A DNA stretch of 62,522 bases, filler included, from Bipalium vagum (taxonomy: Eukaryota): NCBI GenBank assembly GCA_037834085.1. It is 3 parts of 3 records of this genome, joined end to end, with 100 filler letters (N's around TTAATTAATTAA, not from the genome) between each part and the next. Parts side by side here need not be neighbours in the genome. Positions count along the whole stretch, not along the records: positions 20,739 to 43,449 come from JBBMKC010217688.1; 2 more parts are not named here. One strand, written 5' to 3'. Positions 28,115 to 43,549 of this stretch are shown here, piece after piece. The notes beneath the pieces were generated by a model. It searched no databases and had not been told where the DNA came from. It was given only the letters and a program-made list of their open reading frames with translations. How positions within the stretch are numbered: position 1 is the first letter of the stretch; each line of letters opens with the position of its first letter. The position numbers and the translations under genes are program-made.

Positions 28115-28779
28115 ATCGTTAATGTTTTCTGTGATTAATTTTTTTTAATTTTTATTTTTAAAAAAAAATTATTTTATCCAATAATAATTAAGAAAAATAA
28201 TTTTTAATTTTTAGATACCGTTATTTAGCGATTTAAAATGTAAATATCAAAAACATTGACTGATGAAAAACTGAAAAATAAAAGTTCAAAACAAGTTTCA
28301 TGAAAATATATATTTGAATAAATTTTGTATTTATTTAATAAAAGACGTATATTCAAAAAATACATTTATATTTTTCACAAAATTAAGATTAATTTAATAA
28401 ATATATAGATTTTAAGAGTTTCACGCCGTGGAATTATTTTGGTACATGCGTCTTAAACTTCTTGTAGTATACTATTGTAAATTATTATTTTACTGCATTA
28501 ACAATAACATTTTTGATTTTACAAAATATATGAGAACATTTTTTTATCTTTATTTTCTATTTAAAAAAAACTGACTGAATCATTTTTGTGAAATTTGTAA
28601 TAAAAGTACTTCCAAATATAATAAAAATTTAAATTCAAACATACATTTTAAAAAGTACTAATGAAAGTACTAAAAAAGGGTACTATTGAAAAAATAAAAG
28701 AAAAATATCCAAAAGAATATCCACGACACCTCAAAGAGGCAGCTACATTCAACAAACTGTTATAAATAGTAATTTTTAA

Positions 28780-29180
28780 AATAAATTTACAGCAGGGAAA
28801 TGTCCAGGAGAATTACATTTAAAATCTTTAAATCCTTTTAACAAAACAAATGTGAACCAAATTTCTGTGGACCAGGGTTGCATATTTATAAAAGATTAGA
28901 AAACTATAATGAAATAATAGAAAATTACAATGAAACTGGAAAACTAGATAAACCTCCAATTCCAAAACCTGATTCAACTCCAACGAATAGAGTTGATCAA
29001 GCTGCAATGAAACATGATGTAAAATATATTTCAAAAAATTACAAAGATAGACAGATGTTGAAATGATTTATGAAATGAACAATATTCAAAATCCAACTCC
29101 TAGGGAAAAACTTGAAAGAGCAATAATAAAATTAATTATGTAAGTCTTAAAGCAACTTTCAGACTAGGTTTACCAAGATA
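28780..29180 (+). mobile_element. Polinton/adintovirus-like parvo-type phospholipase A2 (PLA2X) pseudogene
   Basis: PGELHL..NFCGPG.HIYKRL....PTNRVDQAAMKHDVKY..DR, followed by NPTPREKLERAIIKLIM. Contains the Ca-loop GPG and the catalytic HD..Y. Frameshifted. Confidence 0.8.
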
Positions 29181-30165: not shown

Positions 30166-30220
30166 TAATTATTTTCCTAAAAATTGGTTGAATTAACTGA
30201 ACTAACATTACAAAATATTA

Positions 30221-31080
30221 TTGAAGTTGGTAAACCAAAATATAACTTTTAATGGTGAAAAATATTATTTAAGTAAAAAAATAATAATTGAACTTAAAGA
30301 TAAAGTTGAAAAAAAAGAAGGCGATGTACTTCCACTGATTACAATTCTTGGAACAATCTTTGCGCGTTTAGGCTCAGCTGGTGGTGTTGCAGATAGAGTT
30401 GCAACAGTTGTTCAAAAAGCAAAAGAATCACAAAAAAACAGATTTAGAAAATAAAAATAGAAATAGAAATTGAGAAACTTATCAAAACTGATAAAACCGA
30501 AGGTAAACTGAAATGATGCGAAGCTCTCAACAATAAAGGTGTACCAAAAGAAGTATCAACTTGAGCTGGACTTTACTTTGATCCACCTTTTTGGAAAGGG
30601 ATTAAGAGATTCAATTGATAATTTATGATATGATGATACAAATATGATAATTTAGATAAATCTGAGAAAAAGAATTAAAAGAATTATTATAAAAATGGAG
30701 TAAGAATAAAATTAAAATAATGAAACAACGAAATGGTTTATATTTTGACACAAGCAAAGCTCTAGAGAAGAAAGATAAAGGTCTTTACTTTGACCGTTAC
30801 AAAAAGAGTAAAAAGATGTTTCTAAATTTTATTTTTAAAAATGATTTTAAATTTAATTGAATTCTTCTGTAAATATGGAATTAATATAACTTCAAATTTT
30901 AAGTTAATAGATATTGGGGAAGATTTAGAGATGCAAGGCTAATACCAAAGACCTAATACAAAAGGTATGCCCTTAAAAATTTTAATGTGGGATGAATTCA
31001 AAGAGATTCGTATAAAATCTGAGAAACTATTAATTATTAATTATCAAAATGAAGGATGAATAAGTATTTACCCTATATGA
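30221..31080 (+). mobile_element. Polinton-like virion core/membrane-lytic protein remnant, possibly followed by an adenain-like protease remnant
   Basis: KKEGDVLPLITILGTIFARLGSAGGVADRVATVVQKAK plus two GLYFD motifs (about 30568 and 30780) resemble Polinton GGFLPL..LG.AGG / G.GLYL proteins. LMWDEF..LIINYQN is only weakly protease-like. Confidence 0.6.
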
Positions 31081-31219: not shown

Positions 31220-31772
31220 GATGAATTTATAACCTCATTTCAAATATTTGTAAGTTCATTTCAAATTTTTGTAAATCAATTTCAAAAATAAATAAATTTC
31301 AAAAAATAAAAATAAGAAAATGTATTACATATATTTATATATAAACAATACATTTTGTTAGGAATTTAAACATTTGTCTGTAAAAAGAATTACAATCATC
31401 AGCGCCTATCAAATTTCCTACATTGTCGATCAATCCAAATAAATCTTTTTCATTTTCAGGACGAGTTGTCTGATTTTTTGAGAATAAGTTCTCAATATGA
31501 TTTAGAGACGGAGAATAAGCAGGCAAAAACAATACCCTATGACTCCCTTCTTCTACCATTTCACGTATAACTGTCGATTTGTGGAATGAAACATTGTTCA
31601 TTATGATTACCACAGATCCATGTTCTCGAATTAAATCTTTTGCTATTAATTCGGTTAAAAACGCTCGAAATGTAATCGTTAAATAATGTAGCTGAGAAAA
31701 TATGTATTTGAAATAAGATTACAAAAATTTGAAATTGAATTACAAAAATTTGAAATGAAGTTATAAACCCTG
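31220..31772 (-). mobile_element. Short IS630/Tc1-like element with sub-repeated TIRs and a DDE_3 C-terminus
   Basis: ORF 31335..31613 VIIMNNVSFHKS..HRVLFLPAYSPSLNHIENLFSK. 31226-31287 is the imperfect inverse of 31707-31767, both built from ~20-bp tttcaaa(t)ttttgtaa units. The right end is ...ccctg|ta. Confidence 0.85.
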
Positions 31773-32700: not shown

Positions 32701-33389
32701 TGTTGGTTGTCAATTTTATCTTTCTTGTTATTATTAACATTGATTTTTCATTGTAAGTAAACAAAACCACATAGGTTATCTTGTAGGTCAGAAAAATACT
32801 TGATATTTCTGTAGATCATTAAAAAACATTTTCCAAAGTTTCCATAAAACAAATATAGTTAATTGTACACAATAACCTAAATCCGTTTCACTTTGCAGAT
32901 CAAATTTGTTATACTCTTTCACATACTCTTAATTTTTCAAATGGAGGTAAGCCATAAGAGTCAAAAGAAAAGTTTTGATAATATCCAACCCAATGAACTC
33001 CTTTTTGATTTTTATTTTGATAATTAATTAGTGGGTTTTTTTAGTTATCTCATCTTTCATCAAAACTTTTAAAGGAATTACGAAATCTTCAGCAATATTT
33101 ATTAAATCAAAATTTGTAGCTGTATTAATTCCATATTTACAGAAAAATTCTAAAAGTAAATTTATTTTTAAATTTTAAATCGAGACATTTTTTATTTAAA
33201 ATGTTATGTAATGAAAATATATTTTACTTTTTTAAAATAATATTTATAAATGGAAAGTTATTGATACAACAGCAATTACTTTTATATATTTCGAGTTACA
33301 TCATACATTATTTGAAAATTTTTATTAAAATATAGAAAAATACTAATAGATATAAAATACATATTTTTAAAATATTTTTTTGATTTTTT

Positions 33390-34474: not shown

Positions 34475-36170
34475 ATGCAAGGAATTCCTAGATATAATGT
34501 GACAAACAAATCAAAGAAAGATGGTTATTAAATTGAGATCTCTAATTTTTAAAAATAATTTATATTAGATGAAGATAGTTTTAAATTTAGTAACAGACCT
34601 CCTTTGGCGTCATCAACTTTTCTAAGTAACGGAAGTACCAGGGTAATTTGATTATTTTTTGATATGAAATATATGTGTGTGTTTTGACAATTAATATATT
34701 AGCAGTATTTTGTGTAAATTTTTAAAACAATTTGTTCAATTTAAGGAAAATAATAAATTCTTTTAGACAGATGAATTGAAGTTGGGATTTGCAAATTTAC
34801 CAGAACAAATGCAACGTAAGGCTGTCAAGAAAGGATTTAATTTTACTTTGATGATTGTTGGAGAAAGTGGTCTTGGAAAAAGCACATTTATAAACAGCTT
34901 ACTAAACCAAAGTATATATACAGAGTCTAGTCGTGATATTTCCAGTCAAGAGATGATTCAATCTACTACCAAGATTGAAAAACATTTTATTGAACTTGAT
35001 GAAAAAGGAGTGAAATTGAGGTTAACAATTGTTGACACGCCTGGGTTTGGTGATAGCTTGGACTGCTCTGAATGGTAATTTTTGAAAATTATATAAATAA
35101 AAAAGTAAATAAATTTCCAGTTGGAAGCCAATAGTTGAATATATAGACGAAACATTTTATCAGTATTTCAAGGACGAGTGTGCCATTAATCGTAAAAATA
35201 TTCAAGATAATCGTGTCCACTGTTGTCTGTATTTTATTTCACCTGTGGGTCATAGTCTTAAACCGGTCGACGTTGAATTAATGAGGATCCTGCACACAAA
35301 AGTAAATATTATTCCAATAATCGCCAAAGCCGATACGTTAACCGAATCGGAACTACTATCGTTCAAGCAAAAATTGATAGGGGATTTCGAAAAATACCAA
35401 ATTAATTTCTATCAACCACCGATTTGTGGTAGTGACGAGGAAGACGAATTTATAGGCCAAGATGCCGAAATAAGAGCCTCGATGCCGTTTTCCGTTATCG
35501 GTAGTAACGTAACAATTGAAAACGAGAATGGTCGCAAATTCCGTGGTCGTCAATATCCGTGGGGTGTGGCGGAAGTGGAGAACAGTAAACATTGCAATTT
35601 CAACATTTTACGAACTTTTATTCTCCGGTAACACTTATCAATGAAAACAAATTCTAATCGATTTTACATTCTTTTTACGCAAACAGAACCCATATGCAAG
35701 ATCTGAAAGACATCACCAGTGATTTATTGTACGAAAATTATCGCGGCCAAATTATCCAGGTTCGCATGAATCGGCGAAACAACGATCGTTATGCTACGAT
35801 GAACAGGTGGCTTTTTTTCTGTTCGTTGAATTCCAATAATCAATATCCATATTCAGTAAGACAGAATCCACTGCTTCCTCTATTGATGACATTGTCGACA
35901 CAAGCAATCTTTTGCAAGAAAAGGATGAAGAGGTTTGTTATAAAACAAATTGTTTTTTTCTGATTAAAATCAGTTAAGTAATATTGTTATTGATTTCATT
36001 TTTTCTTTAAGATCCAACGCTTTCCGACTGTCCATTCAAAAGTGCTTGGTTCGGTCAGCAATGGTTCAGTCGGCAGTGGCTCGTCCAGTAACTTAAGCAG
36101 ACCTCCACCAGGCGGAGGAATGGGTTCCGCTATTGTCAACAATTCTCCGACGGCGTCTGTTAAATCGTGA
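34475..36170 (+). CDS. Septin, SEPT2 group (SEPT1/2/4/5-like); exons 34475-34523, 34569-34642, 34767-35074, 35121-35627, 35687-35806, 35857-35932, 36012-36170
   Basis: [93 protein letters not shown] introns are phase-consistent. The first two and the last exon are less certain. Confidence 0.93.
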
Positions 36171-39100
36171 ACACTCCGAATCTCGTGCCAAACATTATCT
36201 CATTTCAATCAAAAGCTTTTTAGTGCATGTGTGTGTCTTTTACGAAAAATAAACTATTCATTAAAACAGATTTTTTTTTAATTTATCTGCCTGGCCGTGA
36301 AGATTATTATTTACGTCGTTTATTAATTATTTCATCAAAAGTGAAATGAAACCAGTGACTGGAAAATCTTTTTTTTTTGAAAGTCGATTAAACAGAATGG
36401 AAATATTAAATTAATGTTAAGCGAATTTCGTGGATACAAGTACTTAAATTGATAGTCACAAAACGGATTCAGAAAAAATAAACTATTCTTTCATATATTA
36501 AAGTTTATTGATTTGGCTCTAATTTATTTTATCCATGCATTACAACAAAAAACGATGTCTATTTGTGTGATGAAATTTGTTTTTGTCGTTTTCCACCCCC
36601 ATCAACATCGATTATGAATGGTGGTTATTGCTGACAGAAATTTTCAGCGGCATTGACTAATTCGGCTGCGTTGATCGAATGATTTTTTAGTTTTAAAGTT
36701 ATGATTCATTTAGGTTTTTCAGTGTTGTATGAATAATAATAATTACTGATGTTCCAAATTTCAATTTGTTATTTTTACTTACTGCATTAAGTTGTTACTT
36801 TTTGGAAATGGTTTTAGTATTTTGATTTGTTTTTATTTCAAATTAATTATAGCACTGATTAACTTTTGAAATTTAAGACTATTTTAATTTTTTGGGTCTT
36901 AATATAAAAATTAATCATAGAATTTTATGGACATAAACTATATAGAGGAACAAGTTTTCTTTTTTTTCCAGTGAGAATTATTAAATTAATTAATCCTAAA
37001 TAGAAAAATTAGTGTTCTAAACAAAAGGGCACACAATAAGGCACCTATGCAGTTGACATCTCACAGATTATACAATGACTCAGTTTTCATAAGGGACAAT
37101 CAATAGCAAGATGAACTAACATTTTAACTCGACATGGCAAGCGATTCTACAATTCTCGATATGCAGAGAATTCATAGTAGAGCATTTCTTAAAAAATTCA
37201 GAAAAAAAGTGGAGAAATTAACCATTGAAACGTAAAAGAATATATCGTTCGATTCTCGATCTTCAATTTGTATATCACCACGAATTACACAAGTATGTAG
37301 CAAAAATTGAAACAGGCTAACAAAACAAGATACGGAACTTTAATTTATGTTAGAATAACATCTGTTCCATCAAAAAATTGTCCCTTTTAAAAATATATTT
37401 ATTTACAAAATCGATGAAGTGTTAACTGCATAAGTGCCAAAATTAAATTATATTAGATAAAAATACTCTTTCGTATTCAGAATAAGAATATTCATAAAAC
37501 TTCTAAACCTTATCTTCTATATTATTAACATATCAATTACTTAAGCAGTGTAGCTGGTTGTGTGCCTGATCAGGAATTTACAATTTCGTGCTTCCGTTTT
37601 AAATAATTCTGAATTTAGCGGATGTATAGAAGTCATTCTTATTCAAGATAAAGAGGAAGGTATAATAAATTTGATTATACTTTTACTACAAATTGATATG
37701 ACAATTGCATTAATTAATTGGCAAATTATTATTTAACATTTTATGAACATTGCTATACTTAGTGTTCTCAAATGAAGTAGTAGTTTAGATAAAAAATACA
37801 TCAAAAGTCAAGTAACAAGTTTCGTGCTCATCTGATAGATAAATTGTGAATAAGCATAAAATTACTTTTTAATGAATTATAAAGGAAATATAATATATAA
37901 AATCAACGTTCTGCATATTTAAATTAATTGGAATTTGTCAAAATAATAATTCACTTAAGCTTTATTGTTTTTGCTTTACTAATGAAGTGTGAGAAGCCTA
38001 ATACTTTTTTTTAATTCTAAAAAACTTATTTGAACTTAGTTATTATAAACTAATTGTTAAGTTTGTAAAAGGCAAAATTATGATTTTCGATCGTATATTT
38101 AATCCATTTTTTATTTTCATTTATTTCTAATTGACCATAAACTTTATTTTTGAGGTTTATGATGTCATTGGTTTTTTCTTAAAGTATTTAATTTATAACA
38201 CTAAAAAAACCATGTTTATGATTTTTTTAAAGGTTAAAAACTTGTAATATTTTTTCTGGATTTTATGCGATATAGGTGCAGCATTTTGCTTTCGTTTTAA
38301 ATGATTAATTTAATCTCAAAGTATAGTGCGACTATAATTAATTGCCGCACTTTGTAAAATTAGGAAATCTTTATTATTTCTATTGAAAATTTAACTTTTC
38401 ATTTATTTTAAGGTAATAAAAGATATAAAGGTATGTTTTAACAAAATTTTAAGTTTATTTTATTTTACTTATAATTAAATTAAATTTGTAAAAAGCATAT
38501 GTTAGAGACCTCAAGGGTCTAGATTAGTTATTATAAATTAATTATTTAGACCACAAAAGGGTCAGAAATAAAATAATAATAAATTAATTAAAAAGTACAA
38601 CATTAATTAAAACAAAAAAGGAGTAATTAATTATTTCCTAAAAGCGATTTAATCTTGACAATATTGAACCTAAATTGCCAAGATTAGATTAGGGTCCGCA
38701 AGGAGGGACCGATTTAGAATTAACGAGCTATAAAGGGAATTGAAATTGATTGACCGTATCACCAGAATAGTATATAAGGAGTTGGAATCCACAGTGGATT
38801 GCCACAAAATTCTACGAGACATTGGAAGAAACCGAACTCTACGAGACGTTGGAAGCCTTTAACAGTTAATATTGTACTTATGCGACAGGAGCTCACAATG
38901 GGTCCTGTGCTGTTAGGGGGTTTCTGAGCGAACCGGATTTGGCTCAGCAAACCACCATTTGGACCTGTCGTCGACACAGCTGTTGAGAGTATTTTGTTTT
39001 CTTGTTTTTTAAAAAATTAATTGACATTTAATTATTTGATTGATATTTGATTTAATTATTCAATTGATTATTATTGTCTGATTTTTAGTGTGATTGACTA

Positions 39101-39286
39101 TTGAACATTTAATAGAAGACATTTTTATTGATTATTTGATACATTGCGTTTGTTATTGTTATTTTAGTAATTAAGTTATTTCATATTTTCATTTATTTGC
39201 TGTATTGAGAAAAGTGAAGGAGTCAGTAAACGTTGCTAGCTAAGTGTTACGACGTTGTTCATAGCCACCTTATTGAAGGAATACAC

Positions 39287-39382: not shown

Positions 39383-39751
39383 GGAGGCCGATAGAATAAC
39401 AATTGATTGTGAATATTATATAATATAAACCTTTTTGTGATTTAATGACAAACATTTATAATGCATGAAATATGTATATCTGTTAATCTGTAATCTTTAT
39501 ATAAACCTTTGTGATCATAATGTATGAAATATTTTAGTTTTTATATAAAATATAAAAATAATAAATAAATAAAATAAGATTTTTTTTATTCTTCTTAATT
39601 AAATGTTATCCTTCTTAATTAAATTCATAAAACATTAATAATATGTAAAAAAGGCATATTTATCAAAAATAAATAAAAGATAAAAATATATATATATATT
39701 TGCCTAAAATAAATATTCGCTAGCAAGCGAATAAATAAATAAAAAATTAAA

Positions 39752-39816
39752 CCAATCAGGAACGTCAAAGGCTATATAAACCCCTGTTTTCAGTCAAAAA
39801 ACCAGACAAAATTATG
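39752..39816 (+). promoter_or_regulatory. Compact promoter-like cluster (CCAAT, ACGTCA, TATATAAA, CAGT, ATG)
   Basis: CCAAT 39752, ACGTCA 39762, TATATAAA 39773, CAGT 39791, ATG 39814. Confidence 0.4.
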
Positions 39817-40329
39817 AAGTTGAGAGAAGACTCTTATACGATTATATTTGGTAACAAAAAATTTTTGATTTCAATTATAAAAGGTGAATTAAAACAACAA
39901 TTAATAATTATTATTCGAAAAATTTAATAAAATTAATAAAAACTAGTAACTAATATAATCAAAAAAATCGAAAATTAAAGAAAATCTTTTACATTGTCGA
40001 TTCTTTCACACATTTTCGATTTTCTTTTTTCTTGTACACTTGTGCAACCTGATCTACTAGAATTAGAGTAAGACTTTTAAAACAAAGGAACTCTTCTATT
40101 TTTCGATAATCAAGAGTAATCATAATAATTTTTCTAAATAATAATAATAATAATATAAAAAAATTGTGTTGGTGTTGTTTTCAAAAGATTTGTAAATAAT
40201 TTGTGATAAAACAAATACATATTTTCAAAGAGAAAATGTTAATTTGGTTTTCTCAAAATCTCTTATTAATTTCACTTTCTTCAGAGGTTGATGAGCCACA
40301 TTAACTAACAGCTTGATTAAGCAAATAAG

Positions 40330-40495
40330 TCGAGGCTATATAACCCAAACATTATTCACTTGATCTAAACCCCATAGAACATTTATGGGGAATGTTGGTT
40401 CATCGTGTTTATAGTAGTGGAAGGCAATTTATTTCCATTGAAGAGCTTCAATTCATGATCATTAGCTGTTGAGAAGAAGTCGATAAATCCGCACT
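40330..40495 (+). mobile_element. Tc3-like transposase C-terminal fragment
   Basis: YSLDLNPIEHLWGMLVHRVYSSGRQFISIEELQ. Confidence 0.8.
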
Positions 40496-40500
40496 CGAAA

Positions 40501-40756
40501 ATACAATTATGGTTGAATATAATATTGTAAGTGGATTATATTTTAATAATAAAAAACAACTCTTATTTATGATTTTCCCGCAAATACTAAGAAAAGAGGA
40601 TATAAAATTAATAAAGAACCAAATTTTCCGATTAATTTTCCTGTGATTACAAAAAATAATGATGTAATAATTTTTAGAATAAATGATGATAACAGAGAAT
40701 TAAAAGACTTTAATGGAGAATAAATTAGTTTTAAAATTCACCTCAAGAAAGTCTAA
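40501..40756 (+). pseudogene. Polinton-like minor capsid (penton) C-terminal fragment
   Basis: TIMVEYNIVSGLYFN..IYDFP...GYKINKEPNFP.NFPV....I.FRINDD.RELKDFNGE*ISFKIHLK matches the penton GYKI.E.P / DF.GE...LHL motifs. Confidence 0.75.
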
Positions 40757-40814
40757 ATAAAAGAAATTTATAAAAACAAGTTTTAAATAATAAGTCAAAT
40801 TTTTTATAAAAAAA

Positions 40815-41500
40815 ATGGAATTTTATTGTGATGATTTCTTAAATAATAATTCTGTAAATTTAATCATAATTCTAATTTACCTTCAATTTTAGAATGTTAA
40901 TAACTTTTCTTTCTGGTTCAGGAAAAACAATGTTAGTATATAATATTTTATTAAAAAATATTATATTGATTATAACAAATTGATTATTTTTTCTGAAACC
41001 GCTTTTCTTCAACCAACATTAAAATATATTTAAGATTGTTTTGATTATGGTATATCAAAGAAGAAATTTGTCAAATTCTTAAAAAGGAAAAAATAAATAA
41101 GTTTGATGAAGAAAACTACGAATATAAAGAAAGAGAAATTAAAGTAACATTATCTGACAAAGCTAATGAAAATCTACCATCTGATAAATTAAAAAATCTA
41201 ATTATTTTTGATGATGTAATAAATGAAAAAATCAACATATTATGGAAATGTATTTCGCTAGAGGAAGATATAATAAATTTTCAGTAATAAATTTATCTCA
41301 ATCATTTTTTGATTTCCTTTAAGAAGTATAAGAAATAATTCCAATCTTTTAATTTCATTTAAATTTCAAAAAATGACAAATCTCAAATTTATTCAAAAAT
41401 TTTATCTCATCTTGTTGAAAAAGAAGAATTTGATTATTTATTTAATTTTGATATGAATAAAAAATATGATTACTATTTTTATAAATTAAGAAACTAAAAA
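40815..41500 (+). pseudogene. Polinton-like A32/FtsK packaging ATPase pseudogene
   Basis: Walker A SGSGKT (about 40912-40929), Walker B NLIIFDDV, YFARGR.N..VINLSQSFF, and SIRNNSN. Frameshifted. Confidence 0.85.
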
Positions 41501-41559
41501 ATAATGCTATCAGCATTTGAATAAAAAACTTTGTATATTTTTTCTAAAAACTGGAAGAA

Positions 41560-42245
41560 GTGTTGACTTACAATAAAATTACTATTATCGAAAGACAGCC
41601 TATGAGAAAACAGATTATTATGATGTAAGCTTAGATTCAGAAAAAATAACAAATTTAAATGACACAGGAAATTTAACATTTACAATAACACCTAAAACAA
41701 ATCCTTTAGATATATGTAATCCTTTCAAATTCAAAAATTGATATAAAAATTTTAAAGAAAAAGAAAATATTACATTACAGAATAACTATTTTCCTTTATT
41801 AATTTTCAAATGTATCATTAAAATTAGGATCAACAGAAATAGAAAATATTCAAAAATTAGGTCCATCAAATTCTATAACAAATTTTGTAATGATTGATAA
41901 AAATAATAATGGAGAATTATTTATATGAATTCCTGATAAAATTAAAGAGGATGAAACAAAAAATAACAAAGGTTTTAAATCTATAAAAAGTCTATATTCA
42001 AATAATAAAACTAGAGGAAGATTTCTCTTGAAATTAATGTTTGAATTTTTGCAATATTTTAGAAAAGCTTTATATGATATTCATGGAGAAATAACATTAG
42101 TAAGAAAATTAGGTAATTTAAAAAAATATTTTATGGAACACATAAAGTTTTTGACAATCAGCAACCAAGAATAAGATTGAAAAAACTTTCATTATTTATT
42201 CCATCATTAAAATTAAATAATAAGGCAAGATTAAATCTTAGTAAT
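41560..42245 (+). pseudogene. Polinton-like double-jelly-roll major capsid protein N-terminal part, pseudogene
   Basis: NLNDTGNLTFTI, TLQNNYFP..FSNVSLKLGSTEIENI..LG, FLLKLMFEFLQYFRK..EITLVR, KLSLFIPSLKL. Confidence 0.7.
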
Positions 42246-42281
42246 AATTATTAAATAATTAAATTTTTTTAGTTTTATGTT

Positions 42282-43440
42282 ATTTATCAGGTGGTTGAAT
42301 TTCATTTGCTTTATAATTCAATGTTACTTTAATTTCTCTTTCTTTATATTTGTAGTTGTCTTCATAAAATTTATGTATTTTTTCATTTTTAAAAGTTTGA
42401 AAAATTTATTTTTATAATCCATAATCAAAACAATCTTAAATATATTTTAATGCTGGTTGAAGAAAAGCAGTTTCATAAAAAATAATCAAATTTTTATAAT
42501 CAATATAATTTTTTTTAATAATATTACATAATAACTTTGTTTTTCCTGAACCAGAAGGGCCAATTATTAAAATTCTAAAAATTGAAGATAAATACGAATT
42601 ATGATTAAATTTACAGAATTATTTAAGAAATCATCATAATAAAATTCAATTTTTTAAAATATAATTTGATTTACTATTTAAACTTGCTTGAGGTGAATTT
42701 TAAAGCCTATTTCTTCTCCATTAGAATCATTTATTTCTCTGATATCATCAATTATTCTAAAATTTACTACATCAATATTTTTTGTAATCACAGGATAATA
42801 AATCGGAAATTTGGTTCTTTATTAATTTTATATCCTCTTTTTATAGTATTTGTAGGAAAATCATAAATAATATGTTTTTTTCATTATTTAATTATAATCC
42901 ACTTACATTATCATTCAACCATAATTGTATATATATCTGAAATAATAACTTTTTTTTAGAATAATGAACTCCTTCTTCATAAGATTTTTTAACTTCAAAT
43001 CCTAAAAAAATTGCTCTTGAATTTATTTTGAAAATAATGAAAATAGTTTGCAACCTTTACATATTTCCATTGTACAGTTTCCAGAAATGGGATTAGCAGT
43101 AATCTTAAAATAAAATTTATCTTTTTCTAAAGGTACTAACTCTTTGTCATAAATTGGTACTCAATTGAATTATATATTTCTAAAAATTTATATGCCCCAG
43201 GAGTTAGTTTGAAATTTACTTTTTTTATTTTTTCCTTTTGAATCTGTAATTTCTAAATCAATTCTATTATTTGATTCTATTTATTTGATTCTATTATTTG
43301 ATTCTATTTTAATTATATCTATAATCTATAGCTCCAAAAATTCCAGTACCAACGGGTATAAAACTTGATTAGCCAACTCCTAAAGTTGATAAGCCTGTTA
43401 AAGCTGCTTTTTTCATTCCTAAAACACCTCCAATACAAAT
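42282..43440 (-). mobile_element. Second, inverted Polinton-like copy: lytic/core protein remnant, penton and ATPase N-terminus
   Basis: Minus strand: GGVLGMKKAALTGLSTLGVG (about 43370-43432), penton LTPGAY..ITANP..LGFE..EPNFR, ATPase RILIIGPSGSGKTK. 42282-42930 is the diverged reverse complement of 40501-41190. Confidence 0.8.
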
Positions 43441-43449
43441 ACATATATA

Positions 43450-43549
43450 NNNNNNNNNNNNNNNNNNNNNNNNNNNNNNNNNNNNNNNNNNNNTTAATTA
43501 ATTAANNNNNNNNNNNNNNNNNNNNNNNNNNNNNNNNNNNNNNNNNNNN
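43450..43549. other. Assembly gap spacer (44N + TTAATTAATTAA + 44N)
   Basis: Same artificial linker as at 20639. Confidence 0.97.

Follow-up and report, generated by a model that had tools for sequence, protein, structure and literature searches.

Genes and features of the locus

Remnants of a penton gene, an A32-type packaging ATPase gene, and a double-jelly-roll major capsid gene lie on the plus strand from position 40499 of the window, which is the complete stretch of 62,522 nucleotides from Bipalium vagum that was analyzed, and a second set of remnants on the minus strand points toward them. Self-blastn aligned 40501-41222 with 42930-42248 as inverted arms (82.3% identity over 724 columns, 719 bits; 86.9-87.8% ungapped) and, simple repeats aside, found no other strong inverted repeat there; a separate repeat search recovered these arms as several pieces, each with 81-95% identity. 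The loop between the arms, 41223-42247, is about 1.0 kb long and consists mostly of the capsid pseudogene. The inverted arms around a loop described in the sequence-only reading were therefore recovered by the self-comparison, with a loop slightly shorter than the 1.1 kb given there. The GC content of the region is 19-20%, that of most of the window 20-36%. Every module gene at the locus is disrupted by stops and frame changes, none is intact, and the longest stop-free frame between 40499 and 43449 has 81 amino acids, which agrees with the earlier remark that the ORF track misses these genes. The genes were mapped by tblastn; the probes were natural open frames taken from sister copies, which are L-numbered loci of the same genome. 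P0153 and P0154 in the following list are outside proteins.

28590-29180, plus strand: remnant of an integrase gene from this Maverick family (tblastn with L078:1109-2008, E = 1e-28; 69-80% to sister loci by blastn)
40302-40498, plus strand: cut-off C-terminal remnant of a Tc1/IS630-type transposase, abutting the left arm (Pfam DDE_3 at about 40353-40451, under the cut-off with E = 0.0013; frame read)
40499-40753, plus strand: 3' part of the penton (minor capsid) gene, frameshifted, at the start of the left arm (tblastn with P0153, E = 1.5e-17)
40812 to about 41500, plus strand: A32-type packaging ATPase pseudogene, near full length, with stops and in all three frames (tblastn with sister ATPase frames, E = 1e-19 to 1e-28)
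41523-42240, plus strand: 5' part of the double-jelly-roll major capsid pseudogene, ending at the central junction (tblastn, E down to 7e-48 with L006)
42241-42252, no strand: AT-rich filler of 12 bp at the tail-to-tail junction (sister alignments stop at 42240 or 42238 and resume at 42253)
42253-42653, minus strand: 5' half of an ATPase pseudogene with the Walker A motif, right arm (Pox_A32, E = 1.5e-6; tblastn, 73% to the L046 frame)
42681-43298, minus strand: penton pseudogene without its 5' end, 42681-42930 being within the right arm (tblastn, E = 4e-19 with P0153 and 4e-18 with P0154)
43261-43323, no strand: short tandem repeat at the joint of an internal deletion (sequence; positions in L041 and L047)
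43324-43449, minus strand: hydrophobic-ORF remnant, to the contig end (tblastn, E = 2e-5 to L045:1963-2430; blastn, 68-80% to L041, L047, L045, and L086)

The plus strand thus carries the 3' part of the penton gene, the ATPase gene, and the 5' part of the capsid gene, and the minus copy a scrap of the hydrophobic ORF, an internal deletion, the penton gene, and the 5' half of the ATPase gene. At the joint of this deletion, about 1.5-1.7 kb present in the sister copies L047 and L041 is absent. Both copies are cut in mid-gene at the central junction, and the two sides have no common sequence there. Matches to the family begin at 40499 in 57 alignments, directly beside the Tc1 remnant. At the other end, the minus copy reaches the end of its contig, C217688 (JBBMKC010217688.1), the entirety of which forms positions 20739-43449; what had been taken for a gap at 43450 is the joint between two stitched parts of the window and not an assembly gap. 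The outer ends of the locus are consequently an internal cut and a contig end, with neither a terminal inverted repeat (TIR) nor a 6-bp target site duplication (TSD) at the fragment. An interpretation of the arms as Maverick TIRs was rejected since they are coding sequence and not termini. The locus is a fragment of a Maverick family and not a whole element.

Other repeats flank the locus. Two further dispersed families of 0.7-0.8 kb, at 38486-39264 and 39620-40350, precede the left arm. Pieces of the Maverick family itself also occur at 30167-31050 and, in reverse orientation, at 32835-33206, with a Tc1-like element (31226-31767) between them. A host septin gene, of the SEPT2/4/5 kind, is located at 34767-35963; gaps of about 26-35 bases between its frames suggest very short introns. 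Its ten leading matches are for the most part insect and fish proteins that are long or align in several stretches, and the next best are flatworm septins (60-64%), which makes a flatworm host probable as far as one gene can show. A single paralog (72-77%) and no multicopy signal were found in the genome, and the septin was rejected as Maverick cargo.

The gene assignments rest on Pfam, tblastn, and the structure of an outside penton relative, which together bear out the penton, A32 ATPase, and major capsid remnants named in the sequence-only reading. When 18 frame pieces (with X at stops) were compared with Pfam, one exceeded the cut-off, the minus-strand piece 42250-42669 with Pox_A32 (E = 1.5e-6), which supplies the A32/FtsK-type packaging ATPase expected of a Polinton/Maverick. 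The probe from L025 that located the plus-strand ATPase is itself a Pox_A32 protein (E = 5.2e-11). The double-jelly-roll major capsid protein, likewise expected, was recognized via sister capsid frames that map to 41523-42239 and match PF21738 (DJR-like_dom) with E values of 1.1e-18, 1.6e-16, and 4e-10; outside capsids match 41523-42240 at E = 1e-20. In the ESM Atlas, the sister capsid frames went to jelly-roll and Preplasmiviricota clusters at 0.96, the recognition value being low. The predicted fold of a sister capsid frame was poor (pLDDT of 42) and not used as evidence, and searching the PDB by sequence with the capsid alignment returned nothing relevant.

The penton had no Pfam match. Its outside relative P0153, however, has a predicted fold with a pLDDT of 89.6, which Foldseek aligned to the mavirus penton (E = 9.1e-12) and then to adenovirus and Sputnik capsid chains. 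The single-jelly-roll penton of a Polinton/Maverick is accordingly represented, as judged from the modeled relative rather than from the broken gene in the window. The label "lytic protein" did not hold up for the piece at the contig end, which is a hydrophobic ORF located upstream of the penton gene in sister copies (E = 2e-5). No Pfam family over the cut-off was assigned to this ORF, and it may resemble the GasderminX gene of adintoviruses. Together, these data support the identification of the genes at the locus as a Polinton/Maverick morphogenesis module.

The family in the genome and its outside relatives

The family is abundant. A 3-kb query from the locus had at least 92 matches (40 scored of 3265 candidates), the capsid probe at least 151 (150 scored of 2522 candidates), most of them with stops, and the Pox_A32 profile at least 26; all of these numbers are lower bounds and not copy numbers. 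In the longer sister loci, the integrase gene is followed in order by hydrophobic ORFs, an unnamed ORF, and the penton, ATPase, and capsid genes, with an HNH-like ORF (a label assigned by eye) and the protein-primed DNA polymerase gene pPolB converging on them. L042 and L043 deviate from this usual order in that their ATPase-capsid block is inverted. Stop-free A32 ATPase frames exist in L021, L023, and L027, on short contigs with 28-50% GC that belong to different Polinton-like lineages; L027, with 50% GC, may derive from another organism.

Neither pPolB nor integrase is present between 40499 and 43449, as had been noted before. This absence does not extend to the contig, which carries the integrase remnant at 28590-29180, nor to the family, since both genes are found in longer sister loci. 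Their absence from the locus is therefore the result of truncation. The integrase remnant is separated from the inverted pair by the septin gene and other repeats and is probably a separate fragment. The probe that located it, L078:1109-2008, matched the Pfam rve family at E = 2.3e-7, just under the cut-off, and integrase remnants also occur in the sister loci L092, L094, and L080. At least 75 matches to PF03175 (pPolB) were present in the genome, and several sister loci, among them L035, L039, L044, and L088, have pPolB remnants next to the capsid gene.

Two very different types of pPolB, in L035, L044, and L091 on the one hand and in L039 and L042 on the other, lie beside capsid DNA that is 83-85% identical to that of the window, and the only cross-match between the two types has 24% identity. 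Judged from these sequences, two polymerase types beside near-identical capsids would fit an Alpha/Beta module swapping within one host. Alternatively, pPolB and capsid may have become neighbors by chance juxtaposition, the polymerases being truncated.

The adenain-like cysteine protease profile PF00770 had no match in the genome, and neither had its controls. The accessory genes PLA2X, GasderminX, and Cupiennin gave no Pfam match over the cut-off in the sister frames, and the adintovirus accessory-gene labels on sister ORFs are presumed resemblances. The N-terminal part of L078:1109-2008, before the rve domain, may correspond to the parvovirus-like PLA2 domain of Polintons; Pfam gave no PLA2 match for it.

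A HMMER search for capsid homologues yielded 573 at E <= 0.001; an earlier search among longer proteins had yielded none in 1216 candidates. In a FastTree phylogeny with 45 outside capsids, picked by length from the best 150, the five capsid frames from this genome formed one clade (98) with the unnamed protein P0001 as sister (99). P0001 is also the nearest outside capsid, with 45-53% identity. Informative names were attached to none of the 30 outside proteins looked up (29 capsids and 1 penton), which are "hypothetical protein" or nameless, and no related locus was confirmed in viral and metagenome contigs. The capsid tree that had been proposed to place the lineage resolved a single clade with its sister, and among nameless relatives it neither assigned the lineage to a named group nor showed it to be new. 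On the strength of these comparisons, the capsid lineage, without a named close relative in the searches, may be an undescribed one.

Origin of the inverted arrangement

In life, the element would have been a self-replicating, integrating DNA virus-like element with pPolB, an integrase, the A32 ATPase, and two jelly-roll capsid proteins. The locus comprises two dead fragments of one such high-copy Polinton/Maverick family that were likely inserted separately and then joined tail-to-tail. Two copies would have been inserted in opposite orientation, in a nested or adjacent position; these insertions, followed by a deletion, would have brought them tail-to-tail, and both fragments have likely decayed neutrally since then. 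We infer the order of these events and the neutrality as parts of the best explanation. The inverted repeat would be a by-product, the penton-ATPase boundary having happened to survive in both fragments. The contig, which ends in the element, shows neither a duplication of the insertion site nor the second junction that a nested insertion would have. Module genes on both strands were present in 4 of 40 longer sister loci and a gene occurred twice in 3 of the 40, these loci having been picked by family matches and length and not at random; the ATPase gene was on both strands in one, L035, with 207-bp arms of 83.6% identity. The central junction was shared by none of the 39 other places among the 40 scored with a junction query and spanned only in the window itself, and a mobile inverted subfamily was rejected on this ground. 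A copy-back defective genome was also rejected, since it would begin with identical arms, but the arms differ in the haplotype of the penton-ATPase spacer.

This difference also bears on a distinctly less probable origin, a local duplication and inversion of one copy shortly after it was inserted, through fold-back repair or template switching, or a later gene conversion of the arms, again with subsequent decay. The arms were indeed weakly grouped as sisters in two trees (95/71 with 35 rows and 90/58 with 27 rows, neither starred, branch of 0.005-0.006), which left out copies with fewer than about 500-560 aligned bases and, in the second tree, also those below 74.5% identity. They share one private gap of 1-2 bases and two fully private substitutions, 12 minority states in all, and, when pairs are ranked from the fewest polymorphic-site differences upward, stand 17th among 136. 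The 12-bp filler, moreover, carries a 10-bp AT palindrome at the junction. As many shared private states exist, however, in 15 of 120 pairs. The spacer form of arm A is common to L047, L041, L040, and L003 and that of arm B to L103, L038, L018, L004, and L107, so that each form is found in 4-5 dispersed copies. The arms differ in 13 columns in which each state occurs in at least three other copies, and 2.8-4.3 would be expected from random mutation after a duplication, an expectation that ignores hotspots; 4 of the 13 lie clustered in the spacer. Between the two arms, identity (87-88%) is also no higher than between the arms and dispersed copies (86-89%), and the mean identity in the subfamily is 86.0 +/- 2.4% over 120 pairs. 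With respect to sister copies, the mean identity was 87.5% for arm A (n = 11), 86.7% for the loop (n = 7), 87.3% for arm B (n = 11), and 86.2% outside the arm (n = 9). These values argue for two copies with separate histories.

Only a slight chance is left that the assembly fused two unrelated repeat copies into a chimera. The assembly is fragmented into 272,664 contigs made from short reads, the contig ends within the element, and it bears a 1983-bp tandem duplicate of 100% identity that resembles an assembly error. The arms, however, are 12-18% apart and no fold-back read artifact, and the junction lies in mid-gene with 12 filler bases and flanks without common sequence. A contig of run X1 bridges the left, Tc1-penton junction at a depth of 21, although X1 may be the source data and is then not independent; the central junction was spanned by none of the 8 pieces listed among 881 from X1 contigs. 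Slimmer still is the chance that the host keeps the inverted capsid-module pair as a source of hairpin RNA or piRNA silencing its own flatworm-specific polintovirus lineage. A plus-strand transcript of 40940-42420 would fold with its arms paired at -290 kcal/mol, a value that comes with no shuffle control at such a length, and with four perfectly paired runs of at least 21 bases, the longest of 34, and many potential target copies have about 85-89% identity. Any inverted pair would fold likewise, however, and the arms are neither better conserved nor more alike than the loop or the dispersed copies, that is, without homogenization. Truncation has left the junction and both ends ragged, opposite-strand juxtapositions recur among the sister loci, stops interrupt most scored capsid matches, and the junction is private to this locus among the scored places. 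A Maverick-derived hairpin locus was not found in the portion of the literature searched. Small RNAs specific to the inverted arms, if they existed, would make this a testable case of host silencing via a DNA-virus fossil. Most likely, the arrangement came about incidentally and is debris of a decayed family of very high abundance, and the locus itself, one rearranged fossil among many, is of little consequence.

The tandem duplicate on the same contig comprises 23433-25415 and 25424-27406 and contains the 3' part of a gene for a gamma-tubulin complex component, the first copy of which is a single open frame of 968 amino acids. Either the duplication happened very recently or the assembly is in error here.

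Comparison with known systems

Inverted tandems of transposable elements with internal-to-internal junctions are described as products of nested insertion in opposite orientation or of fragmentation (McGurk and Barbash 2018, PMC5932611), and inversions at eri-6/7 of C. elegans are linked to Polintons, multiple copies of which at a single locus can cause them (PMC11414722). In the parts of these sources considered, the former concerns transposable elements of Drosophila and the latter the inversion of a host gene, whereas the locus in B. vagum contains only remnants of viral structural genes.

Vertebrate Mavericks are mostly mutationally degraded fossils with the core genes int, ppolb, atp, and those of the major and minor capsid proteins (Barreat and Katzourakis 2021, PMC8097293). 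As presented in that source, the ATPase gene belongs to their polymerase module, whereas the sister copies here lead from the integrase to penton-ATPase-capsid, with the HNH-like ORF and pPolB converging. Planarians of the genus Dugesia show a large DNA/Maverick expansion (bioRxiv 10.64898/2025.12.11.693146), and the family here is also abundant in what is probably a flatworm genome, a likeness by description and not by sequence. The Maverick family of B. vagum is one more host-specific family and adds a likely flatworm lineage to the Mavericks.

Degraded endogenous copies of animal Polintons/Mavericks, the "adintoviruses," are widespread in animals (Starrett et al. 2021, PMC8502044); a keyword search of one supplementary file of that study did not retrieve flatworm terms. 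As far as the sections considered describe them, adintoviruses unite the penton, the A32/FtsK ATPase, and the double-jelly-roll capsid in one module, as does the locus, and possess an rve integrase and pPolB, as do the sister copies in this genome. The locus itself differs from them as a doubly truncated pair of fragments. Module swapping, as proposed for adintoviruses, would be in keeping with the near-identical capsids associated with two polymerase types.
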